Origin: a virus
Lineage: Duplodnaviria; Caudoviricetes
Direction: 5' to 3' (one strand)
IMG/VR virus record: IMGVR_UViG_3300013281_000008
Coordinates: 1-64,000 of that record
Length of the DNA: 64,000 nucleotides
This document shows, in pieces, positions 8,967 to 64,000 of the stretch. Numbering within the stretch: position 1 is the stretch's first letter; every line of letters starts with the position of its first letter. The notes below the pieces were generated by a model, which made no database searches, was not told the origin of the DNA, and was given only the letters and a program-made list of their open reading frames with translations. The translations under genes were made by a program, and so were the position numbers.

Positions 8967-9152
8967 TCATCCAACTCTCTCCGTTTTTAGTTCCCCGGTT
9001 TCCTTATCAAAATCATAACGAACCACGATGAAACCATTGATAACCAGGTCTTCCATAAGTTTTTCAGAAAACTTAATTTTTGAGGCGATTTTCCTAATCA
9101 CCTCTTTGGCTTTTTGATCTTCAAAATATCCCTCATAGTCATCCTCACTCAT
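8967..9152 (-). CDS. hypothetical protein
   Basis: 61-aa ORF. Confidence 0.5.
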   Translation of the reverse strand: MSEDDYEGYFEDQKAKEVIRKIASKIKFSEKLMEDLVINGFIVVRYDFDKETGELKTERVG

Positions 9153-9530
9153 CCCTCACCGCCTCATAAGTCGCTTCGAATTTCTTAGCCCATGCGATGT
9201 CGAGCTTCTCAACCCGATACTTCTTCATCAACTCTGCTAGTTCTTTCAAAAACTCATTTCGAGACTTTTCTGATGAATAGGTAAAAGCTCCGTTCACTTC
9301 GCCAACTAACTCACTCATATAACCTCCACCACGACCGGCCTCTTGCGGTATTTCATAAATCTTCTGCTTTCCTACCTTTTTCGTACATGTATAATTGTGA
9401 AATCGTTATAGCAAGAGTTGCCACTCCAGACAAGAGTAAAGAACTCACCATATTATCAGGTCCTCCCGCCAAACCAACGCAGAAGCCAGAAACCATAACG
9501 CCCATATATCTAAGTAAGAAATCCATTTAA

Positions 9531-9713
9531 TTATCCTTGTTTAAGTTCTTCTAGTTTATCTTCTGAAATAATATCTAAACTAACATTTTGTTTACCTAAT
9601 TGCTTTTCTAAAGAGCTAAATAAATTAAACATAAAAATATAATCCGAATTATTATGTTCTTCTTCAAACCGATAAACAATCTCACTTGATTTAAATTTAA
9701 AATGAGCCAACAT
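9531..9713 (-). CDS. hypothetical protein
   Basis: 60-aa ORF. Confidence 0.45.
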   Translation of the reverse strand: MLAHFKFKSSEIVYRFEEEHNNSDYIFMFNLFSSLEKQLGKQNVSLDIISEDKLEELKQG

Positions 9714-10436: not shown

Positions 10437-11108
10437 TTATAAGATTCCATAGTTCCTTTTTAACACATTTTCAGCCGTTTGTAAAATCCTTTCTTCAAAT
10501 TCTTCTAATCCATCATTATTGCTAACGATTTTAGCATTCTTGGCTATTTCTTTAATTTCAAGCTCAGACGAATGTTCACCTGCTTTAGCTTCGGCTTCAT
10601 CTCGCTTAATATAGATTACATCGAATCCTAACTTGTCGTCAAGCATGGTCTTTAAAGTGTTGTATTCATTAAGGAATCTCAAATCAGTCACGACATAATT
10701 CTGGGACGTCTGAAACTGTATGCTTTCTATCATCTTGCGAATATGGATAGTTGGCTCTCGTTCTCTAAGAATCTCAGTACCAACGTACTGAAGAACCGCC
10801 CTAGGGGTCCAAAATCCAGCATTAAGGTGCTTCCTAAAATCCTGAGTTCTAAGCTTCAGTCCATACATCTCGTAAATCAAAGGTAGTGTGACCAGAGTCA
10901 AACGAAAAGCAGGGACTGCTGGATTTAAAGCCATTTCCTTAAAGTGTGGGTCTTCAAAATATTTAATGTCGGTTTCAAATACTATTGAGCACACTTCCTT
11001 TAAGTATTTAGCCAACTGAAGCTCAACAATATCAGGGTATTTAGCTTTAATAAAGTTAAATGCCGTTGTTTTGCCCGCTCCCTTATTTCCGGTCAAACCA
11101 ATAATCAT
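10437..11108 (-). CDS. deoxynucleoside monophosphate kinase
   Basis: IIGLTG.KGAGKTT P-loop, R.vLQ.vGTE, VTDLRF.NE, H.SE motifs. Confidence 0.88.
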   Translation of the reverse strand: MIIGLTGNKGAGKTTAFNFIKAKYPDIVELQLAKYLKEVCSIVFETDIKYFEDPHFKEMALNPAVPAFRLTLVTLPLIYEMYGLKLRTQDFRKHLNAGFWTPRAVLQYVGTEILREREPTIHIRKMIESIQFQTSQNYVVTDLRFLNEYNTLKTMLDDKLGFDVIYIKRDEAEAKAGEHSSELEIKEIAKNAKIVSNNDGLEEFEERILQTAENVLKRNYGIL

Positions 11109-13264
11109 AATACCAATACCTCTGCCAACTTAGCCTGGTTGCGCTTCAATTTATAATTAAGAAACAACGATTTTACATCGATGATATTATCAAATACTAG
11201 CGCAGTTTTATATAGTTTGTCAAGTAGCCTTTTAGGATCATAGTCACCAGCAAAATCTTCAATAAGCTTAATAGTACCATCTTCTTTAAAGTAGGCATGG
11301 ATCTTATCGCCTTCAAATACGGATTTATTCTCTATTGCGTCTTTAACCTTTTGCTCATTACTTCGGTGAGGATTGAGGATCTTCTCGGTTATGGTTTTTT
11401 TATATGCCCATCGATTCATGTCTTTAATATCGAAGATCTCCTTGACATATTTATGGTAAATGTCTACATAATTCGTGTGACCGTCAATCATTGCCTTTAG
11501 TATCTCTTGGATAAACTCAGCAAGTGCTGGTTCCTTCTGAGTAGCTTTAAGGGCTGAGCCTTTAGTCTTAATCTTCTTTCCATCATAAAGGAGATAGTTC
11601 TTAGCTTTAGCAATAACTACTCTAGGATAGTAGCCATCATCTTCCCATCTAATCTTCTCCGGGAATATGGAGTTAAGTTCTACTAGAAGATCTTTCTTTT
11701 CTTGGTCTGAGAAAGGAGATTGATCTTCTTTACAAACCATAATGGAATCAGTGTCGCCAGACGTAATGATAAACTTCTTAGATTCGGCCCAAGATATCGA
11801 TTTATTTAGAATCTCTCTGCCATTCCTTGTGACTTCAGCGGCACCATTTGGATAATTAAAACTAAGTCCAGTTGCACCCATAAAACCAAAGAAACTATTA
11901 ATTAGGATTTTCTGACTCTGTTCTAATCCTGAAAAATAGCCATCTTTAGTTTCTTTTGCTTTCTTCTTGTTCTTCAATCTCTCGGATGTAAAGTATTGGA
12001 GAATCTGTAGCATATTTTGATTTGGATCTTTAGCTTTATCGAAAATCTCATAATTGATCATGATTGAAGGATACAAGCTAGATGCATCCCACTTGACACA
12101 ATGTGAATAAATTCCAGAATGGCCAAATGAAATACCGCCTTCGAATTGTGCTGGAGGTGAGGCTTTCGGAATCGAATGACCTTCCTGTAGATAGCTTCTA
12201 ACCATCAAACCATTAATCTGGCTTCCAGTTGCTGATTCTATAATTGACTGATAAGAACGAGGAATAGATTGGGCCATATAAAAGAATACCGGGCTCATTA
12301 AATCGTAGAGGGCCAATGCATCATCCGCATCGTGTTCGGCATAATCCTTAATCTTCTGCCATTCCTCTTGAATCTGATAATTAGCATTGATTTTGCTAGC
12401 GTCGTAAAACTGTCGTCCTTCTACTTGGAGTCCTTCCTCGGCTATGATATTCTTAAGACTATAGCTTTTGTACTTTCTTCCTACATCGTACTTGAACGCC
12501 AAGAAAAGAGTATCAATTACTTCCCGACCAAAAATAGTAGCTCGATTGTAGTTATAGAACTGGGAGCCATCTTTCCTAAACTTCCTTTGGAATTGCTCAA
12601 ACTTAACCGATGTATTGTTACGTCCTAACTTTAGGAATGTCCGACTCATGTTAGCTACGTGTTGTAAATAGGGCAAGTCAAACATAAAGATATTATGTCC
12701 AACAATAATGGAAGGATCTATTTCTCTCACCCAATCGCACCATTTCTCTAGCATGTCCTTCTGGTTTCTGTACTGATCATAACAAAACATCTTGCGAGTA
12801 ATTTTTCCGTCAAAAGAACGATAAGTATTCGAGATAATCAATACCTTAGAATCGGGAGTATGCTTAATAGACGTCGTTTCAATATCGAAAGAAAGAATAG
12901 ATACTTGCTTATGGTTCATTCCTTTAAAATAGGTAAAGCCATCCTTAAGCATGGCTTGTTCTTTAGGATCATTGGGTGCCCAGACGTCTTCTTTACCAAG
13001 TTCGTAAAGCTTCTTCTCTTTACGGAATTCAAAATAATCATCATAAAGCTTTGCATACTTATAATGAAGATTACCATCAAGCTCTAGCCATCCTTTAGGT
13101 TCTAGGGGTTGTGGGGCTAAAACCCAGGCTTCATAAGGATAAGACAGAGTGGAAATTTCTCCATTCTTTTCAATAAATATCTGAAGTGTGTCCCTATTAT
13201 ACTCAATAGAAACAATATTTTCGGTTGGCTCTTTGCCGTGGACTATTTCAAGGATTTTAGTCAT
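11105..13264 (-). CDS. polB: family B DNA polymerase
   Basis: Exo motifs FDIET, GHNI..FD; pol motifs DASSLYPS, K.L.NS.FG, GDTDS; start ATG 13264 overlaps the primase stop (ATGACTAA). Confidence 0.95.
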   Translation of the reverse strand: MTKILEIVHGKEPTENIVSIEYNRDTLQIFIEKNGEISTLSYPYEAWVLAPQPLEPKGWLELDGNLHYKYAKLYDDYFEFRKEKKLYELGKEDVWAPNDPKEQAMLKDGFTYFKGMNHKQVSILSFDIETTSIKHTPDSKVLIISNTYRSFDGKITRKMFCYDQYRNQKDMLEKWCDWVREIDPSIIVGHNIFMFDLPYLQHVANMSRTFLKLGRNNTSVKFEQFQRKFRKDGSQFYNYNRATIFGREVIDTLFLAFKYDVGRKYKSYSLKNIIAEEGLQVEGRQFYDASKINANYQIQEEWQKIKDYAEHDADDALALYDLMSPVFFYMAQSIPRSYQSIIESATGSQINGLMVRSYLQEGHSIPKASPPAQFEGGISFGHSGIYSHCVKWDASSLYPSIMINYEIFDKAKDPNQNMLQILQYFTSERLKNKKKAKETKDGYFSGLEQSQKILINSFFGFMGATGLSFNYPNGAAEVTRNGREILNKSISWAESKKFIITSGDTDSIMVCKEDQSPFSDQEKKDLLVELNSIFPEKIRWEDDGYYPRVVIAKAKNYLLYDGKKIKTKGSALKATQKEPALAEFIQEILKAMIDGHTNYVDIYHKYVKEIFDIKDMNRWAYKKTITEKILNPHRSNEQKVKDAIENKSVFEGDKIHAYFKEDGTIKLIEDFAGDYDPKRLLDKLYKTALVFDNIIDVKSLFLNYKLKRNQAKLAEVLVL

Positions 13265-15275
13265 TAAACGGCTTCTTAACATCCTTGAACGATTTAATAC
13301 TTAAAATCTTAGTGTTAATAGGTTCATCTGATTCTTCAGCATCGTCCATTACTTCTTCCATGTCATACTGAGCTTCCAGATTCTGTTTCTTCTCAGTCAT
13401 CTTACGAATCATTTGAGCTTTCTTATGATAAGGAATAAAGATCTCGGATTTTTCATCTATTGTCATTGGGCGGAAATCCTTGCTAACTGAGTCTAGAACA
13501 AGGAGGCGCCAATCATACACCGTGATTCGGTCCCGATTCTCCTCGTCTTGCTCTCTGATCTTACAGTATTGGAATGAGGTCACTTTAAGATCAATCTCCT
13601 TCTGAACCCGTCTAAGTGGCTGCCACGCCGTGATGATGTAGTCACAATACCAATCAAAATGAGAAATCCCATAAGCCGCATTGCCTTCAATCGGAATATC
13701 ACCAACCCCAGACTTCGATTTAGTCGTTTGAGACTGAGCTATAATGAATACATCTAGTTCTTTGGCTAAGGTTTTGAGTTCAGCGCAAATCCGCTCAAGT
13801 GGCATACTCTTTTTAGAGTCAAATCCAAAGTCTGCATTATTGATCAGATTAAAATTAGGAATTTTAGTTGTATCGATGACTGGGCTAATCGCGGCAATAT
13901 GGTCAATAGTAATAGCCAGAACCTTCTTTCCGGTCACTTGCTCAGTATGACGCACTGTCCAGTAAATCTCTTGCAAACCTATACGAATCGGATTACCATC
14001 TTCGTCCTCATTACTAATGATGTACAGTCTATCATCAAAATCCTCATGAGCGACATTGCCTTTCTTCCATCTCTTAATCATTTGATGGGCTGGCATTTCC
14101 AAACTGAAGTACATGAGTAGTCCGTCGCCAGTATTATTGCGAGCAATATGCCGAAACATCGACAACGCTAGAGTTGACTTACCAATACCTTCCCCAGCAA
14201 TCAATCCAAGAACTTCAGTTCGCCTCCAACCGGAATGTGTTCGATCCATAAAGGACGGACCATATATTCTTTCACCCATTGTCGGGAGTTTGCCAGACAC
14301 AGTCATTGCTTTAACAGTCGATGCGACGTGAGTCGGACGCATCTTGAATACCTTATCGATAATACCAGTTACATAGTCTTCTGGATTGCCTTGGTATTCT
14401 CTGGCCTTCTTGGTGTGCATCAAAACCTGAAAAACTTCATTCTTATTGAAGAAGTGTTCAAATAGCTTGTTACAGAGGGCATAGTCGGCACTCGATCTAT
14501 CACCACTGGTTTCAATAGGATTCTCAAAAAGCCGACGTATGCCTTCCTCCTTCTTCATCAGTTTGATAAATTTCTCAGGTAAGATAGAGAAGTCAGGAGT
14601 TTGATCCATAATACTTTTATATGTACCATTAAGTCTGGATAATTTCAAGTCCAGTTTTATTCGATCTCTCTCAGATAACGGCTGGATGGTCTTCATTACA
14701 TCCTCAAATGTATAAGTCCCATCGTCCATATACTCGAACAATTCTTGGCACTTCTTTAACTCATTAAACTTCTTAGTATTAATAGTTCCTGGCAGTCTCA
14801 TAATACGAGAAGGATTCCAGATACTAGCATCACTCTTAAAATGAGCTATAAGCCTCAGTTGGCCTTCTAGAAACCTAGCTTGATCTAAGTCAGAGACTCT
14901 CCAGTAAACATGATAGCCATTTCCAGACGTTGTTACAGTTGTAGGAACTGGCTTAAACTTCTTAAGAGATTCCAAGAACTTTTCACCAGAACCGTAGTTA
15001 TCTTGAAGTTGTTTAGCATCAATGTCGATATAGATATATTGAAATACGTCTATATCTTTGTCCTGAATAGTTCCAGTGGGGGGTGTGCTTGGGTAATTTG
15101 GAAAGAAATAAACATTATAGCCCAGTTTATTCTTTTCCTCGATAAATCCATCAGATAGTTCTAGATCACCAATGACATCTGGTCCATCAATCTCTTGAAC
15201 GAAATCTTTATTGGATCTACCAGTAGCTTTACTGATGGGTTTAGCCCATTCTGGTTTTATAAGACGATAATACAT
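13257..15275 (-). CDS. bifunctional primase (RepB/AEP-like)-SF4 (DnaB-like) helicase
   Basis: DID, SGNGYHVYW, RIMRLPGT.N.K primase motifs; GEGIGKS Walker A, FSLEM, IDH, SQ helicase motifs. Confidence 0.88.
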   Translation of the reverse strand: MYYRLIKPEWAKPISKATGRSNKDFVQEIDGPDVIGDLELSDGFIEEKNKLGYNVYFFPNYPSTPPTGTIQDKDIDVFQYIYIDIDAKQLQDNYGSGEKFLESLKKFKPVPTTVTTSGNGYHVYWRVSDLDQARFLEGQLRLIAHFKSDASIWNPSRIMRLPGTINTKKFNELKKCQELFEYMDDGTYTFEDVMKTIQPLSERDRIKLDLKLSRLNGTYKSIMDQTPDFSILPEKFIKLMKKEEGIRRLFENPIETSGDRSSADYALCNKLFEHFFNKNEVFQVLMHTKKAREYQGNPEDYVTGIIDKVFKMRPTHVASTVKAMTVSGKLPTMGERIYGPSFMDRTHSGWRRTEVLGLIAGEGIGKSTLALSMFRHIARNNTGDGLLMYFSLEMPAHQMIKRWKKGNVAHEDFDDRLYIISNEDEDGNPIRIGLQEIYWTVRHTEQVTGKKVLAITIDHIAAISPVIDTTKIPNFNLINNADFGFDSKKSMPLERICAELKTLAKELDVFIIAQSQTTKSKSGVGDIPIEGNAAYGISHFDWYCDYIITAWQPLRRVQKEIDLKVTSFQYCKIREQDEENRDRITVYDWRLLVLDSVSKDFRPMTIDEKSEIFIPYHKKAQMIRKMTEKKQNLEAQYDMEEVMDDAEESDEPINTKILSIKSFKDVKKPFND

Positions 15276-15358
15276 TTCCTCTCCAAATGTAAATTATGAG
15301 CAGTTTATTGCGTCATGCTCAGGACGTCTTTTGCTTGCTTCACATGGGAGGAGAGGGG
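15276..15358 (-). promoter_or_regulatory. RBS-sequestering 5' leader of the primase-helicase gene
   Basis: CCUCUCC (15356-15350) complementary to SD GGAGAGG (15284-15278); AUGUGAA pairs with UUUACAU; inner UGAGCA/UGCUCA hairpin. Confidence 0.65.
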
Positions 15359-15760
15359 TTAACTGTCTTCTTCGACGGAGTATCCGTCAGAGTCTAAATC
15401 TGCTTCATCATTACCCCCAGTTGAAGCAGAGCCCTCGCCTTCCTCGATCAGTGTCGTGCAATTATCATTATTAAGATCAACTTTAAGATTGAACTCAAGA
15501 CCGTCAATTTCCTTCGACGGAGCGTTCAAATAAATGCTATTAACTCGATAAACATTGCCGGTGTTGGTATCCTTGAAAAGGAGCTGTCCTTCGGCTTTAA
15601 TCGTCTTTCCATCTTTGGTCTGACGATCCTTGTTATTAATAAAACAAGTGAATTGTCCGGTATTAAACTTTGACTTCCAAATGGAGCCAATCGTTCGATA
15701 GCCGCTATAGTCCTTTTGAGTCTTAGTTGGTGTCTTTGCTGTTTTGTTTCCGAATCCCAT
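15359..15760 (-). CDS. putative single-stranded DNA-binding protein
   Basis: Beta-rich core with acidic disordered C-terminal tail; located between SSAP and primase. Confidence 0.5.
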   Translation of the reverse strand: MGFGNKTAKTPTKTQKDYSGYRTIGSIWKSKFNTGQFTCFINNKDRQTKDGKTIKAEGQLLFKDTNTGNVYRVNSIYLNAPSKEIDGLEFNLKVDLNNDNCTTLIEEGEGSASTGGNDEADLDSDGYSVEEDS

Positions 15761-17941: not shown

Positions 17942-18031
17942 AATAAATCTTCACCGGGGACAAGATTCGAACCTGTAATAGGTAAATTAACAGTTTACTG
18001 CGTTGCCAATTTCGCCACCCCGGTGAACATC

Positions 18032-21867: not shown

Positions 21868-22366
21868 CGCCTTTAGGTTTCTTAGGGAAAGGAACTAACT
21901 GACCTTTTGGTTTATTATCTTCAATAAGCTGATCTAAATCGTTCAAAAAGGATTCAGGCTCCATTTGAACAACGCCTTGGATTAGCTCAAAGTATTCTTC
22001 TTTAGCTTGCTCCCCATACAGGATCTCTCCGGTTTTATGGCTATGGTGGAAATAAGAGCCAACTAGGAAGTCTGGGAACTGTTTACGCACAGTATCGATA
22101 AACTCCATAACTTCAATTCCTTTGGAAAGGAATGAACAACTAACCACAACTCTATCTTCTTGAGCTTCTATGATAAAATCTACGCCACCCAAAGGAGGAG
22201 TTTTAATACAAATAGCGTAATGAGGGTTTTCTTTGGCTTCTGACTGGTCTTCAACCATCAAAAGATTATCTGGAACGAATTCTTTTAGTTCTTTAAGAAT
22301 TGTTTCCATTTTAAAAACTAAGCTTTTTGAAAGCATGAATACAGCATAGCCTACTGGAGTCTTCAT
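21848..22366 (-). CDS. hypothetical protein
   Basis: 172-aa ORF. Confidence 0.65.
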   Translation of the reverse strand: MKTPVGYAVFMLSKSLVFKMETILKELKEFVPDNLLMVEDQSEAKENPHYAICIKTPPLGGVDFIIEAQEDRVVVSCSFLSKGIEVMEFIDTVRKQFPDFLVGSYFHHSHKTGEILYGEQAKEEYFELIQGVVQMEPESFLNDLDQLIEDNKPKGQLVPFPKKPKGDDPTFN

Positions 22367-22660
22367 GTCAATAGCTAATAAGTAAAGCTTTTCAATAGCC
22401 TATAGCCTACTGGACTAGCAGTACATAGCTATATTTATTCTCTAGAACCCTAAGCCTACTGTAGTCTTTCCAATACAGACCCTTCTCTCCATGTTCTATA
22501 TGAAAGCTATCTGTAGGACTTATTAGCTTATAGTAATAGCAGTATATTGAGTAGCTATTACGTAGGCTAAGACTTACAGTAAGCTATAAGCTAATGTATT
22601 GCTTAATAGCTATAATAAATCCTACTTATTACAAACTGAGCTTATTACACTGTTCTTGTC
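22340..22660. repeat. AGCT/TAGC-rich low-complexity tract with AGCCTACTG direct repeats (candidate origin)
   Basis: tagcctactgga at 22347 and 22403, aagcctactgta at 22452, and numerous AGCT/TAGC motifs; no long ORF. Confidence 0.5.
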
Positions 22661-23185
22661 CCAAAACAATTAAGGAACATGGAGTCGGGAAGTGAACTAC
22701 CTAACCGAACCGGGGTCTTGCAACAGTGCTTTTACCCATATGTTACAAAGTCATAGAATAACTGAAGGTTGGTCGTCTGACTAGGGTAGTTCAACCGGAG
22801 GGCCTCCCAATACCGCGACATAAGCTACTAGCTATCTAGAGCTAGGACTTTACATACTGAAAAGAAGAAAATAGGAATAGAACTCCTAAGATCGTGCTTT
22901 TGTTTTTTTCAGTTAGGCTTATGGTTTGGTACCTTACGCCCGCAGTTTCAGCTATCTTAATTACTATGTGGCTATAACCGCCGTTTTGTTGATTTGGCAG
23001 CAAACTCCAATTGCGGCATAAACGCTGCCCCTTAGAAAGAGTGTTTGGTGTAACTACTCCCAAGTTCCTGCGCTCTAAGAGAGTATTTCATCCCGTCGAT
23101 ACGATTAGGTCAAGTAGTCCACTCAGACTTCGGTAACTTAAATTTTCCAATCCATCATGTGAAGCAAGCAAAAGACGTTCTGTTC
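22660..23185 (-). ncRNA. candidate structured non-coding RNA (~500 nt)
   Basis: Begins just downstream of the TTAATAAGTAT motif; helices 22693-22701/22785-22793 (9 bp), 22996-23001/23024-23029 and 23031-23036/23074-23079; 5' end antisense to the primase leader. Confidence 0.55.
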
Positions 23186-23190
23186 TATAA

Positions 23191-23201
23191 ATACTTATTA
23201 A
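23191..23201 (-). promoter_or_regulatory. TTAATAAGTAT motif (only minus-strand copy seen)
   Basis: TTAATAAGTATTTATAGAACA identical to the copy at 52871(+). Confidence 0.7.
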
Positions 23202-23227
23202 CTTTTCGTTGTGAAAGACCTTTAATT

Positions 23228-23443
23228 TCATAAAACATTTGTTTCCTTTAAATCTTCAATAAGAAGATTTAGCTGACTCACAAGCTGATCCCTAAGCTGA
23301 TCCCTAAGCTGACCCCTAAGCTGAATCCCAAGCTGATCATCAAGCTGACTCCAAAGCTGACTCCAAAGCTGATCCTCAAGCTGACTCCAAAGCGGTCTCC
23401 CAAGCTGACCTTTAATATCTTCTCCTAGAAAGTCTGCTTTCAT
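23228..23443 (-). CDS. xxQL-repeat cassette C (12 units)
   Basis: Family head, units and tail present. Confidence 0.8.
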   Translation of the reverse strand: MKADFLGEDIKGQLGRPLWSQLEDQLWSQLWSQLDDQLGIQLRGQLRDQLRDQLVSQLNLLIEDLKETNVL

Positions 23444-49762: not shown

Positions 49763-51310
49763 ATGTCAGGTGCAAATATTGTCAGCACGCTGTCTGGTCT
49801 GTTCAAAGAACAGTACAGTGACAAGCTCATGGATCTAGTTCCAGATGGCGTCAAGATGCTTCGAATGGTTCCATTCGTAGAATCTAGTAAAGAAATCGGT
49901 AATTTTTACCATCAGCCTTCTGTTTAAGCATAGGGCCCCTTATTAGAAATGATAAGGTAAACACTCTTTGAATTGCTGGAAACTCCAAAATAGGGACAAT
50001 CAGCAGCCAAGCTGTAGAAATACAGAAGGTTCAACGACTAGGTCATATGACCGTACCGTCAAGCGACGGGAAGTGGAGAGCATCCGAAAGGATGAAGAGA
50101 TAGTCTAATCTTGCAGGTAACTGCAAGCTGCTCGAAAGAGCGGACAAGATGTAGCGAATCTTGTTGAATATAAATGGTGCTTTTGGCACAAGAACACGGA
50201 CTCACGTACGCCCCGGCGAACGGAACGGCCTTCTCCCTAGGAGATGCCATTGCTGCTCGTCTTCAAGATGCTCAAATCGCTGGCGCTCAACTTCTGTTGC
50301 GCTCCTCGATCAGCTATGAAGCCGCTGCCCGTGCGTCGAACGATAAGAAAGCTTTCGTGAAAGCGACCAGCCTTCTTGTCGAAAACATGCTCAACTCAAT
50401 CAGCAAGCGATTGGAAATCTCGCTTCTCTACGGACAATCAGGCCTTGCCTCGTCTGTAGCGACGACTAACCAATCTGCTACTTCTACCCGTCTGGAAGTT
50501 CCTGCGGCTTCTTGGGCCCCTGGAATCTGGTCTGGATCGGAAAACGCTGTTTTGGTTGCGTACAACGGTACAACCCGTCTGAACGCTGCGGATACCGCTG
50601 GTTACACGGTTACTTCGGTTGATCTTCTCAACCGATATGTATTCGTGTCTGCATCTAGTGCTGATATTACGGCGATTGACGCTGCTTCTGGTAGCATCAC
50701 GCTGTACTTCCTCAGTTCAGTGGTTGGTTCCGGTGGAGGTCAAACCTTTAACGAAATGGCCGGTCTTGATAAGATCATTACGAACACTGGCTCGCTCTTC
50801 AACATCAACGCTTCTACGTATGCGTTGTGGAAAGGTAACTCCTACAGCGCCGGATCTGCGTCACTTAGCTTGACAAAGATCTTGAACGCCGTGGCGTTTG
50901 CCGTGGAACGTGGTCTTGATGAAGATGTAGTTTGCATGATGTCTGCAAAGACGTGGGCAAACATTGCTTCTGATCAAGCTGCTCTTCGTATCTATGATCA
51001 AAGCTACAAGCCCTCGAAGCTTGAAAACGGTGCTTCTGAGTTCGTGTTCAACGGACAAAATGGTCGCATCGAAATCCACACTTCAATCTACGTCAAAGAA
51101 GGTGAAGCATTCGTGTTTCCTCTTAAGAGACTTAAGAGAATTGGAGCTATGGATGTTAGCTTTAAAATGCCTGGTCGTAGCCAACAAGAAGACTTCTTCT
51201 TGGAGCTATCTAATGCTGCTGGGTACGAGCTCAGATGTTATACTGATCAAGCAATCTTCTGTGATTCGCCTGCGAAACTCGTGAAGATTACGAACATCGT
51301 TAATAGCTAA
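49763..51310 (+). CDS. major capsid protein, spliced: exon 1 49763-49918, exon 2 50177-51310 (429 aa)
   Basis: Exon 1 MSGANIVSTLSGLFKEQY...FYHQP joins in frame to VLLAQEHG...; follows the scaffold gene; high-expression codon bias. Confidence 0.85.
49919..50176 (+). mobile_element. group I intron (IA-like, 258 nt, ORF-less)
   Basis: P AAUUGCUGGAAA, Q AAUCAGCAG, R GUUCAACGACUA, S AAGAGAUAGUC; P1 GCCU|U:AGGGC with U.G; P10 AAGCAU:GUGCUU; terminal omega-G at 50176; P7.1/P7.2 hairpins. Confidence 0.92.
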
Positions 51311-51412: not shown

Positions 51413-52849
51413 ATGAAAGAATGTTCTAAATGCAAGCAGATTTTAGCTTTTGAAGAGTTTGCTAAATGTAAAGCCAATAGAGATGGTTATCAATATCAAT
51501 GTCGAAAGTGTAAGAAACTTGCAGTTGAACAAATTAAACTCCTTCACGTAGATGGAAATTATAGTGACAATATAAGTAATAAGCAATGTTCTAGATGTCA
51601 CAATCTTCTTCCTAAAGACGCTTTTACAAAGAATTCATGTCAGAAAGACGGCCTTCATAATGAATGTAAAGGATGTATGTCATTAAGGGCTAAATTACGT
51701 TATTCAAATAACAAGGATAAAATTAAAGCCCAACAGGCTAATTATTATAAGAATAATAAACATGTTAAAAATACTTATTGGCAAAAACGAATAAAAACCG
51801 ATGTACAATTTAAGATAAAAGTGGGATTAAGAAGACGTCTAAAATTAGCATTAACCAATAATTATAAGAAAGGGATGGTTATAAAGAATCTTGGCTGTAG
51901 TGTTGAGGAGTTTAAGTGCTATTTCGAGTCTAAGTTTCAACCCGGAATGACTTGGAAAGACTTTCTTAAAGGTAAAATACATGTTGACCATATTAAACCA
52001 TTATCTGCTTTTAATTTGACAGATCCTGAACAAATTAAAGAAGCTTGTCATTATACTAATTTACAACCTCTTTGGTGTGAAGATAACATTAAAAAGGGTT
52101 CGAAGTATATTAATACATTCTATGAAGATGATAATTTAAAAGTAAATATTATACCCATATCTGTTTTAGTTGGGATGGATAGACATCATTTATCTAAAGA
52201 GGTTCAAAAAACGAATAAAAGGCTTGTACAATTCTTTGATTTTGAATTGGTAGAAAGAGGATTTCAAATAACAAGCTTTGTAAAATCGGCTAGTGGACAA
52301 AATAAAAATAAGGTATTTGCTAGAAAATGTGAAATTAAAGAAGTTTCCCAAGACGATGCTAAAGGCTTTTTAGATAAATATCATATTCTAGGTGGCTCAT
52401 TAAATTTTAGATTAGCATTGGGTTTATTCCATAAAGATGATTTAATAGCTTTAGCGACATTTGGAGCACACCATAGGAATCATACTAAGAATGTATTAAG
52501 TCGTTTTGTGACTAAAATAGACTGGAATGTAATAGGTGGCTTGTCGCGACTTTCTAAAGCTGCTTATGATCAATTGGGTGAGATTTATACGTGGATTGAT
52601 TTACGCATGTCAAATGGGGATAATTGGATTAAAGCCGGTTGGATATTCGAAGAAAAGCTGAATCCCGACTATTTTTATTATAATTTCAAAGCCAATAAAG
52701 TAATTAAAAAGCAATCTCGACAAAAATCCCTGGTAAACACCCCAGACCATATGACTGAATTTGAACACGCCAAGCGAGATGGTCTAATCCGTATATTTGA
52801 TTGTGGTAAGATACGGTTAAAGTTTGACCCCAAAAAAGAATCTAAATAA
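51413..52849 (+). CDS. HNH endonuclease with Zn-finger repeats fused to a GNAT/Mom-like (Hef-like) domain
   Basis: Two CxxC..DG....CxxC repeats; HVDHI.P...HYTNLQPLW..DN..KG HNH; C-terminal ARKC.I.E...FL..YH..G...SRF...GG.SRL...D.R.S.G..W...G. Confidence 0.75.
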   Translation: MKECSKCKQILAFEEFAKCKANRDGYQYQCRKCKKLAVEQIKLLHVDGNYSDNISNKQCSRCHNLLPKDAFTKNSCQKDGLHNECKGCMSLRAKLRYSNNKDKIKAQQANYYKNNKHVKNTYWQKRIKTDVQFKIKVGLRRRLKLALTNNYKKGMVIKNLGCSVEEFKCYFESKFQPGMTWKDFLKGKIHVDHIKPLSAFNLTDPEQIKEACHYTNLQPLWCEDNIKKGSKYINTFYEDDNLKVNIIPISVLVGMDRHHLSKEVQKTNKRLVQFFDFELVERGFQITSFVKSASGQNKNKVFARKCEIKEVSQDDAKGFLDKYHILGGSLNFRLALGLFHKDDLIALATFGAHHRNHTKNVLSRFVTKIDWNVIGGLSRLSKAAYDQLGEIYTWIDLRMSNGDNWIKAGWIFEEKLNPDYFYYNFKANKVIKKQSRQKSLVNTPDHMTEFEHAKRDGLIRIFDCGKIRLKFDPKKESK

Positions 52850-52870
52850 TTCCTCAATCATTCCAATAAT

Positions 52871-52881
52871 TTAATAAGTAT
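52871..52881 (+). promoter_or_regulatory. TTAATAAGTAT candidate late promoter
   Basis: Intergenic; followed by a hairpin-rich leader. Confidence 0.7.
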
Positions 52882-52972
52882 TTATAGAACAACATTCAAC
52901 TTGTACTCCCTATACGGTATAGGGTTGCCTCTCTCCTTGAGGTCCTGTTGAATCAAAGGAGTGTAAATACTT

Positions 52973-61483: not shown

Positions 61484-64000
61484 ATGAGTCAGCAATTAAC
61501 AATTCGAACTCAAGGTCTTTATCGCAATACTAACGAACTCTCTGAAACACCAGAAGGTTCTTTACTTACTGCAGATAATATCGTAATTGATAAAGACAGC
61601 ATTATTGAACCACGTCGTGGTTTAGATTCACTTGCCTATAAATTTCGTGATGCTTCCGACCGTGCTATAAATCTATTCTTCTACAAAGATGCTTTATTGG
61701 CTCATAATAGCACGGACTTAATGAGCCGTTATGATTCAACCGGAGTTGCAGTTACTGGCGACTTTACATCTAGCACGAATATAATTACGTCCATTGCGCC
61801 AAATACCGATGATTTATCAGTCGGCCAAACTGTTGTCGGAACCTACGTATTTGAATTAACAGCGGTTGCCGACGTAGCCGGAAGCTTAGCTGGTAAATAC
61901 TTTCTATTTAATGCCGCTCAAAATAGTACTAGATACTATGGTTGGTTTCAAGTTTCTGGTTCTGGAATAAATCCAAACGTACCAAATAGAACCGGTGTTC
62001 AAATTAACATATCGACAAACGACACCGCAAATACTGTAGCCTCGGCAATTAACACGCAAGTGAACGCTTTGACCGATTTTAATTCTAGTGTTCTAGGTGC
62101 TATCGTAACTGTTACGAATGCAAATGTTGGAGATTCTGATATTGCAAGAAACGCCCCGGGCGTAGACTCTCCAGGATTTACATTTAATAATATTGGTACT
62201 GGTGTTCCAGAGGGAACCGTTATTGACAGTATCGATAGCGCTTCCCAAGTAACTGTGTCCCAAAACTTCACCGAAACTCGAACTGGTGGTAATATAGCCT
62301 TTGCCGGATGGCGTAATTATAATGGAACTTATACCGCTCCCGGTGCCGCTTATACTAGAATTAGGGCATCTACCTCTAATCAGAACTTCTATTTTGTTTC
62401 CAATACTGGAGTTAAAAAGCTTGATAGCTTAGACGGTACTATTATTAATTCCGGCGGAATAAAAGCCATTGATGGGGCTGGAACTACGACCGGATCTTCT
62501 GGTTTTTTAGCCAACAATTTTAAAGTCGCATATAGGATTGTTTGGGGTTATAAAGACACCAACAATAACTTAATTTTAGGAGTCCCAAGCGAGCGCATCG
62601 TTGTCAATAATACGAGCGGCGGAACCAGAGATGTAGAATTAACTATTTATATTCCAGATGGTATTACTGTCGATTATTTCTATCAAATCTATCGTTCCGA
62701 ACAAGCTGATGTAAATGGAGAAGGTCCTTCAGACGAGCTTAGGCTTGTATATGAGGATAATCCAACATCTGCTGAATTGACTGACGAAGAAATCGTATTA
62801 ACTGAAAATACTCCAGAAGATCTTAGAGATGGAGCTCTCATTTACACAGCGCCGTCTCAAGAAACCATTCTTCAAGCGAATGAAATACCGCCATATGCGC
62901 AAGATATAGACGTATTTCAAAATTGCATGTTCTATGCGAATACTCGAACACGTCAACAGCTTCCTTTGACATTGTTAGCCGTTGGGGCTCCAACTGGATT
63001 GAATTATATAGTTCAGGACGCAACCTATGTAAATGCTACAACATTCACGGTTGTATCGGCGTCTGGTATTGCAGTTGGAATGCTTATTACTGGTCCTGGG
63101 GCTAATATTCCATCTGGATTGAGTGTTTCAAACGTCAATGGTACTACCATTACGGTGACTGGTGGGACTCTTACCGCTTGGGGTGGAACTATCTCTGTCC
63201 AATTTAGAGATGGTATAACAATCAATGGTGTGCAGTACATATCTAATAATTTGACAGAATATGATAATACTGTTACGTTTACGGCGGCTTCTCCAGGTAA
63301 GGTTAATTGGACAGCTCACGGATTAACTGCTAATTCAACCATTGTCTTTTCAACAACTGGGACACTTCCAACTGGATTAGTTGCAGGAACCACCTATTAT
63401 GTAAATAATCCAGGCGCCAACGATTTTGAGATTGCAGCCACTCAAGAAGGCACAAGTATTAACTTAATTGATACTGGAACTGGTGTTCATACGGCAATTG
63501 CCAACCAAAGACGTTTTCAAGTCTATACTGGCGGATCTCCGGCCCAAAATGTTGACACCACAGCCAGACAAATAATTCGAGTCGTAAATACAACATCTTT
63601 GAATACTACGGTCTATGGATATTATTTATCAGGTCCAGAAGATCTTCCAGGACAAATGTTAATAGAGGCGCGAACTGTTTCAGTTGCTCAATTTTTTACA
63701 ACAGCAACTTCTCACGGAAGTGCATTTAATCCAGTTCTTCCAACATCTGGTACTTCTGTTGCTTCCATTAATGATGAATTTAAAAATGGTCTTTATTTTA
63801 GTAAACCTCTTCAACCAGAAGCCGTTCCATCTGGAAACTTCTTAAGAATTGGTGATGCTGACGAAGAAATCCTTCGTATAAAACGACTTCGAGATGCTCT
63901 TTTCATATTTAAAAAGGATGGAATCTTTCGAGTAATCGGGGATGATCCTACTACATTTAGGGCGGATCTTTTGGATAATACGGCAACTATCGTTGCTCCA
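61484..64000 (+). CDS. tail tubular protein B / P22 gp10-like nozzle protein, truncated at the window end (not in ORF track)
   Basis: ATG 61484: MSQQLTIRTQGLYRN.NELSETPEGSLLTADNIVID....EPRRG; frame not translated codon by codon to the end, but no plus-strand ORF interrupts it. Confidence 0.65.
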   Translation, partial: MSQQLTIRTQGLYRNTNELSETPEGSLLTADNIVIDKDSIIEPRRGLDSLAYKFRDASDRAINLFFYKDALLAHNSTDLMSRYDSTGVAVTGDFTSSTNIITSIAPNTDDLSVGQTVVGTYVFELTAVADVAGSLAGKYFLFNAAQNSTRYYGWFQVSGSGINPNVPNRTGVQINISTNDTANTVASAINTQVNALTDFNSSVLGAIVTVTNANVGDSDIARNAPGVDSPGFTFNNIGTGVPEGTVIDSIDSASQVTVSQNFTETRTGGNIAFAGWRNYNGTYTAPGAAYTRIRASTSNQNFYFVSNTGVKKLDSLDGTIINSGGIKAIDGAGTTTGSSGFLANNFKVAYRIVWGYKDTNNNLILGVPSERIVVNNTSGGTRDVELTIYIPDGITVDYFYQIYRSEQADVNGEGPSDELRLVYEDNPTSAELTDEEIVLTENTPEDLRDGALIYTAPSQETILQANEIPPYAQDIDVFQNCMFYANTRTRQQLPLTLLAVGAPTGLNYIVQDATYVNATTFTVVSASGIAVGMLITGPGANIPSGLSVSNVNGTTITVTGGTLTAWGGTISVQFRDGITINGVQYISNNLTEYDNTVTFTAASPGKVNWTAHGLTANSTIVFSTTGTLPTGLVAGTTYYVNNPGANDFEIAATQEGTSINLIDTGTGVHTAIANQRRFQVYTGGSPAQNVDTTARQIIRVVNTTSLNTTVYGYYLSGPEDLPGQMLIEARTVSVAQFFTTATSHGSAFNPVLPTSGTSVASINDEFKNGLYFSKPLQPEAVPSGNFLRIGDADEEILRIKRLRDALFIFKKDGIFRVIGDDPTTFRADLLDNTATIVAP

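Follow-up and report, generated by a model that had tools for sequence, protein, structure and literature searches.

We find that the genome of an uncultured lytic phage holds, 7.8 kb apart, two stretches whose minus-strand RNAs would pair with each other almost perfectly: a segment of the primase-helicase leader (site A), in which a predicted hairpin hides the ribosome-binding site, and a segment directly behind a late-promoter-like motif (site B). We put the probability that this pair constitutes a functional antisense riboregulator, one that leans towards unlocking the leader, at roughly 40%.

The genome is an 83,142-bp IMG/VR virus record, estimated complete, and the window analysed here is its first 64 kb. 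Minus-strand genes run from position 1 to ~37 kb and include those for a family B DNA polymerase, a primase-helicase, an exonuclease, a DEAD/SNF2-type helicase and an AAA ATPase; from 37.5 kb the plus strand carries the structural genes, including those for the terminase, portal, major head protein and tail proteins. A tRNA-Asn gene lies at 17951-18025. The major head protein ORF has a group I intron (94.8 bits) directly upstream, at 49909-50127, and a gene for an HNH/endonuclease VII-type homing endonuclease downstream, at 51413-52849. Over the whole window at gathering score, Rfam returned nothing beyond one tRNA and one group I intron. About ten dispersed mini-genes on the minus strand, between 2861 and 31025, carry 12-nt CAGCTT-containing repeats that encode xxQL units. 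The features around the two sites are as follows:

11105-13282, minus strand: family B DNA polymerase gene
13257-15275, minus strand: primase-helicase gene, 672 aa, its end overlapped by the polymerase gene
15276-15358, minus strand: primase-helicase leader, 83 nt, between the 133-aa gene and the start at 15275
15278-15284, minus strand: Shine-Dalgarno (SD) sequence of the leader
15287-15293 and 15339-15345, minus strand: arms of the leader's upper stem
15350-15356, minus strand: anti-SD of the leader
15297-15326, minus strand: H-type pseudoknot core, with stem P1 (CGUC/GACG) and loop UGAGCA pairing with downstream UGCUCA
15320-15346, minus strand: site A, the target segment in the leader
15359-15760, minus strand: 133-aa gene upstream of the leader, its product ending in an acidic C-terminal tail
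22367-23087, minus strand: stretch of ~720 nt behind site B that has no credible ORF, with a core shared with phiL098 (22972-23031) and CTAG-rich short repeats
23088-23231, minus strand: 47-codon ORF containing the motif and site B, probably non-coding
23156-23182, minus strand: site B, 27 nt; its minus-strand RNA would be complementary to site A at 26 of 27 positions, 23 of them in one exact run
23181-23204, minus strand: late-promoter-like motif, with core TTAATAAGTAT at 23191-23201

On the plus strand, 15324-15346 is the exact reverse complement of 23156-23178. This 23-nt match lengthens to 26 of 27 positions over 15320-15346 and 23156-23182, with a C against a T as the sole difference, and similarity then breaks off sharply at both ends. 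The exact match, its extension and its abrupt ends had all been described in the original prediction, and all were reproduced from the sequence. No longer inverted match exists in the genome, and this one is beyond chance: in 60 simulated order-3 Markov genomes of 83 kb, the longest inverted exact match ran to 15-20 nt (median 16), and 20 nt was reached in only one. As the genes here are all on the minus strand, the minus-strand RNAs of the two sites are mutually complementary. Direct reading of the 23-mer reveals neither dyad symmetry nor a hairpin. Searches with 18- and 20-mer cores returned only three unrelated coding matches in IMG/VR, none of them in relatives, and zero matches in JGI metagenome contigs and GTDB genomes, so there is no detectable host-gene or CRISPR-spacer origin. 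A second exact inverted match, of 20 nt, links 15039-15058 in the primase-helicase gene with 62901-62920 in a 1164-aa late gene, and both stretches encode DIDVFQ in frame.

The leader that contains site A is predicted to fold at -23.1 kcal/mol (z = -3.2), with CCUCUCC paired to the SD GGAGAGG and AUGUGAA paired to UUUACAU, which reproduces the structure proposed earlier. Pairing of its SD exceeds 98% in the ensemble (unpaired probability at most 0.014 at each base), and the ribosome-binding site is thus held in a predicted hairpin, as it is in a toehold switch. A comparable lock is found in two relatives, the closest informative ones. In L010, whose primase is 53% identical, UCUCUCC pairs with GGAGAGA through a compensating change, and in L011 CUCCC pairs with GGGAG; no key, that is, no antisense partner, is detectable in either. 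In the window phage the stop codon of the 133-aa gene occupies 15359-15361, 2 nt ahead of the anti-SD, and across the window, L010 and L011 the anti-SD starts 0-7 nt past the stop codon of the preceding gene, which means that the lock can probably be opened by translational coupling. Judging from the size of the ribosome footprint, a ribosome terminating on the upstream gene probably melts the anti-SD. With this built-in cis key, the lock does not need a trans RNA, and its presence alone in relatives suggests that the lock is older than the key. The 133-aa gene has no family match, and its label as a single-stranded DNA-binding protein (SSB) is putative. In both G005 (80440-80520, minus strand) and phiL098 (contig L098, 20955-21030) the primase-helicase leader is separated from the upstream gene by a tRNA-like sequence, and G005 does not have the anti-SD lock.

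The leader also contains a pseudoknot, in which AAACUGCUCA comes after the hairpin CGUC-CUGAGCAU-GACG and the loop bases UGAGCA pair with UGCUCA. The motif consists of a 4-bp P1 that is free in sequence, a conserved 8-nt loop (consensus CUGRGYAU), an A-rich linker and a tail (AAACUGCYCA) that pairs with the loop to form a 6-bp P2. The window phage, L010 and G005 all fit it and L011 has a tail variant, in the same place in all; P1 shows compensating changes, to AGUC/GACU in L010, ACAC/GUGU in G005 and GGAC/GUCC in L011. A pattern scan located the pseudoknot in at least 119 IMG/VR contigs (L100-L218), often in several copies per contig and standing before genes or tRNAs, and this phage group has a single copy, always ahead of the primase-helicase gene. 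Over 70 sequences, 95.7% of cells are paired, compared with 79.8% in shuffled controls and 23-40% with slid partners, and there are 117 double-sided changes. Neither the pseudoknot nor the leader has a match in Rfam, and a literature search for the motif strings returned only unrelated primer matches. The covariation is strong, and the pseudoknot is a widespread, uncatalogued phage motif of which the leader core is a member. A reading of the motif as a sigma-54 site was rejected, as the spacing is wrong and the covariation, which includes U-G pairs possible on one strand only, points to RNA. The leader shares the stems, loop and tail of this motif, which forms the context of the target and is not the antisense pair itself.

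Site A starts one base ahead of the upper stem and runs through the 5' arm AUGUGAA and the A-rich linker GCAAGCAAAAGA into the pseudoknot, where it takes in the 5' strand of P1 and the first loop bases. The 27-bp duplex with the RNA of site B is predicted at -41.9 kcal/mol and opening costs 10.0 kcal/mol for the leader and 4.7 kcal/mol for the RNA, giving a net binding of about -27 kcal/mol. The 12-nt linker has a mean unpaired probability of 0.67 and opens for 2.0 kcal/mol. A single-stranded site beside the stem is therefore present, as an internal linker and not as a 5' terminal toehold. The proposed target is borne out, in that the RNA would bind strongly and its pairing would take in both the accessible 12-nt linker and the upper stem's 5' arm. 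Should both RNAs coexist, their pairing would be physically hard to avoid. A duplex of 27 bp also suffices in length for RNase III. RNAduplex was uninformative on long regions, where any long pair scores high.

Whether such binding would free the SD is less certain. The original prediction had the RNA displace the stem in the manner of a toehold switch; the locked ribosome-binding site, the open linker and the strong binding agree with it, but the strand that holds the SD lies outside the match, which stops 3 nt before the anti-SD. When site A is blocked in the model, the anti-SD/SD stem persists (-13.0 kcal/mol, versus -9.1 kcal/mol without the stem). The dimer model does open the SD: GGAUUGG of the RNA forms five additional, discontinuous pairs with the anti-SD, which make the open state ~5 kcal/mol better, and it is on these pairs that SD release depends. 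As the cofold program cannot represent a state in which the lower stem persists, and the stem does persist in the blocked-site model, release is possible and not guaranteed.

Directly ahead of site B lies the motif that would drive the RNA. The core TTAATAAGTAT has nine exact copies on the plus strand, each directly ahead of a late structural gene and together preceding terminase-side, portal, capsid and tail genes, and the minus strand, which carries the early genes, holds only one, at 23191-23201, as originally noted. The listed copies fall at, or overlap, the stop codon of the preceding gene:

37504, 40620, 43408, 49567, 52871, 56008 and 58349 of the window, and 65595 of the genome: copies of TTAATAAGTAT, also present in G005 and L219

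The same motif stands ahead of orthologous late genes in phiL098 and in G005, an 84.9-kb relative whose conserved genes are only ~65% identical in DNA. A signal that is strand-specific, conserved and tied to late genes is most simply a late promoter. The earlier suggestion of a phage-specific promoter is thus supported by the strand specificity of the motif, its position ahead of late genes and its conservation in two relatives, but the promoter would be of the late type, which has no obvious fit with 'activating the replisome'. Two motif copies have an SD only 4-5 nt behind them, so the 5' end of the RNA must sit at the 3' edge of the motif. The 24 bases at 23181-23204 match the copy at 52868-52891 at 23 positions, and site B begins where the motif ends, with an overlap of 2 nt; 23156-23204 is thus a mosaic, in which an inverted, near-identical copy of the promoter leads into one of the leader segment in antisense. 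Both lie within the 47-codon ORF, which has no family match and a coding score of 0.06, compared with 0.005 for a spurious ORF and 0.3-0.5 for real genes; it scores like a spurious ORF and is probably non-coding. One of the repeat mini-genes (23228-23443) lies immediately upstream of site B.

Downstream of site B, Rfam found no match at 22200-23300 even up to E 10, and folding of 22640-23185 as a whole gave no global thermodynamic signal (z = -0.71). No intrinsic terminator was found on the minus strand over the 800 nt behind site B and beyond, and no convincing one between 23.2 and 15.3 kb, so although a promoter-like motif is present, a transcript from it would probably not be a discrete small RNA with its own promoter and terminator. 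Gene order is conserved in phiL098 (UDG, AAA ATPase, gap, small gene, helicase), and window 22972-23031 on the minus strand has the exact blocks TTTATGCCGC and AAAACGGCGGTTATAG in common with phiL098 9100-9156; in both genomes these blocks lie between the AAA ATPase and helicase genes. The helix that flanks these blocks covaries (GGCAGC/GCUGCC versus AGGUAU/AUACCU), and the segment 22972-23031 may represent either a conserved RNA or DNA resembling an origin. The repeat mini-gene, the motif and site B are all missing from phiL098 between its AAA ATPase gene and this core, which argues that the arrangement in the window is a recent, lineage-specific addition next to a conserved non-coding element of greater age. 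The other border of the phiL098 gap, at 9536-9546 (minus strand), has a one-mismatch late motif, TTAATAAGAAT, for which we estimate a chance probability of about 0.05; it points antisense to the early genes, the opposite way to the motif in the window. CTAG- and TAGCT-rich short repeats at 22340-22640 of the window, directly upstream of and into a 172-aa gene, include CCAGTAGGCTA-like units at ~22356, 22412 and 22461, the third reading ACAGTAGGCTTA, and look like operators or iterons. The 172-aa gene is an orphan for which a homologue search gave no relatives.

Neither megablast nor blastn against the phage collection found close relatives, the nearest primase being 53% identical. The contigs that hold the identical primase, four of them from other samples, match the DNA of the window phage at 100% identity, and among these near-identical contigs the site pair shows no variation. 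No counterpart of the pair was found in L010, L011, L016, L082, L098/L083, L099 or G005: the longest runs of Watson-Crick or G-U pairs are 13-16 nt in L098, L099, L011 and G005, and no exact match of at least 12 nt occurs in L010, L011, L016, L082 or G005. The pair thus appears, in this comparison, to be unique to this phage. An independent contig, L007 (SRR2082607), spans both sites and is collinear with the window, and none of four related contigs has the inverted form. A Hin/Gin/Cin-type inversion system is improbable, given the lack of dyad symmetry in the 23-mer and the collinearity of L007. Some relatives carry RNA-repair genes (Ro60/TROVE, RtcB and RNA ligase; L082 2187-6111, L098 11804-12724 and 16958-18145) that were not seen among the window ORFs scanned.

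For a functional RNA speak the two donors, both regulatory and non-coding, the orientation from promoter into antisense, the exact junction and the accessible linker in the target; against it stand the lack of conservation or variation, the late timing, the relatives' lock without a key and the short-range shuffling. Of the proposed toehold activator of the replisome, the complementarity, the promoter-like motif and the accessible target hold up, whereas the match does not reach the anti-SD, the promoter is late-type and the lock occurs in relatives without the key. We envisage a young, lineage-specific element in which a copy of the late motif (23204-23181, minus strand) was joined to an inverted 27-nt copy of the leader (23182-23156). 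Late in infection, an RNA transcribed or processed at the motif would have its 5' end within a few bases of 23185-23190, and its first ~35 nt would nucleate on the open 12-nt linker of the leader. The 27 bp would then zip up, and the upper stem would melt along with the conserved pseudoknot's 5' half. The lock could open by strand displacement, aided by the weak extra pairs to the anti-SD, or an RNase III-type enzyme could cut the 27-bp duplex and thereby detach the anti-SD from the SD. The primase-helicase and polymerase would then be translated late in infection independently of the upstream gene. The analysis establishes the two sequences, the predicted fold, the promoter-like character of the motif and the predicted binding energies; the existence of this RNA, its presence in the cell together with the leader and the sign of its effect are our inference. 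If the pair is functional, unlocking is slightly better than an even bet, favoured by the RNA pairing with the upstream arm of the inhibitory structure and not with the SD or AUG; repression or decay is a more tentative outcome. The late timing of such an antisense RNA has no obvious logic. We consider it rather unlikely that every step holds, namely that a lytic phage recently built a trans RNA from a promoter copy and an inverted leader copy, that by strand displacement or directed cleavage this RNA frees a ribosome site gated by a hairpin, and that replisome translation thereby switches from coupling-dependent to late-promoter-dependent.

The same mosaic could be neutral patchwork, an alternative that we regard as doubtful: template switching or illegitimate recombination in a cassette-rich arm of the genome would have pasted 24 nt from the 52.87-kb late promoter and 27 nt from the leader side by side, both inverted, and the resulting RNA pairing would have no selected role. 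Such an origin accords with a single mismatch in each patch and with their 2-nt overlap, as in microhomology-mediated switching, with the absence of the whole insert (mini-gene, motif and site B) from phiL098, with the ten dispersed repeat cassettes, one of them directly upstream, and with the lack of the pair in every relative. The genome also holds another improbable inverted match, that of 20 nt between 15039 and 62901, which has no regulatory logic. However, with more than 90% of the genome coding, donors picked at random would be unlikely to yield two regulatory non-coding pieces, with a promoter that reads into the antisense across an exact junction, and if the promoter copy fires, the model suggests that a net pairing of about -27 kcal/mol would be hard to avoid.

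Two further explanations fare worse than the riboregulator. The 23-27-bp copies might act as DNA, as binding, priming or recombination sites on opposite strands, for example single-strand initiation sites for a RepB'-like primase domain or crossover sites that invert the 7.8-kb segment. RSF1010 RepB' works with inverted ssi sites, and the N-terminus of the primase here weakly matches RepB_primase (E = 0.0011); site B adjoins the 720-nt non-coding, repeat-rich region, which could be an origin, and the opposite-pointing late motif of phiL098 fits transcription-activated DNA better than an RNA gene. We nevertheless judge a DNA-level role improbable: the 23-mer has neither dyad symmetry nor a hairpin, 7.8 kb separates the sites, L007 is collinear and the inverted form appears in none of the four related contigs, no recombinase turned up among the ORFs scanned, and 23 identical bp exceeds what a protein site needs. 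Less probable still is pairing in cis, in which a late transcript runs the 7.8 kb and its own 5' end pairs with the leader downstream, protecting that end or creating an RNase III processing site. Every intervening gene lies on the same strand and no convincing minus-strand terminator interrupts 23.2 to 15.3 kb, but excision of tRNA-Asn (17951-18025) would cut such a transcript, pairing across 7.8 kb during transcription is kinetically unfavourable and comparative support is lacking.

As a candidate riboregulator, the pair has partial parallels among known systems. Toehold switches and loop-targeted pairs of cis-repressed and trans-activating RNAs combine a hairpin-locked ribosome-binding site, single-stranded nucleation and a long, perfect trigger that acts by strand displacement. 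The arrangement here shares the locked site, the single-stranded nucleation site and the long trigger, but nucleation would occur at an internal linker and not at a 5' toehold, the SD-holding strand is not displaced, and the 7-bp anti-SD stem can persist in the model. The c4 antisense RNA of phages P1 and P7 (Rfam C4) acts on the icd-ant message, where it blocks the ribosome-binding site and represses. There too a phage encodes antisense RNA and target on the same strand and in the same direction at separate, non-overlapping loci; the target here, by contrast, lies 35 nt upstream of the SD within an inhibitory fold, and membership of Rfam C4 was rejected after no match was found at 22200-23300 up to E 10. 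Natural activators that open an inhibitory loop of a 5' UTR are DsrA, RprA and ArcZ, which act on rpoS; as described in PMC3783183, a separate RNA pairs with the upstream arm and not with the ribosome-binding site, itself paired in the 5' UTR, and the same geometry is seen here. Unlike the short, imperfect seeds of those RNAs, the complementarity in this phage is 23-27 nt long and near-perfect; it covers the upper stem and linker and not the anti-SD strand, and the putative RNA is phage-encoded, with a late-type promoter and no terminator.

The near-perfect complementarity makes the proposal directly testable in a two-plasmid reporter, for which the host is not needed, and an RNA able to unfold a widespread pseudoknot would offer a natural handle for studying that structure. 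Even a mere recombination scar would still document short templated patches in phage genomes. If the riboregulator is real, it would be a rare case of a lytic phage controlling its own replication genes by a separately encoded antisense RNA; it would show that such regulators can arise when a promoter copy is fused to the target sequence in inverted form, and it would represent a natural counterpart of engineered trigger and switch pairs, caught at birth.
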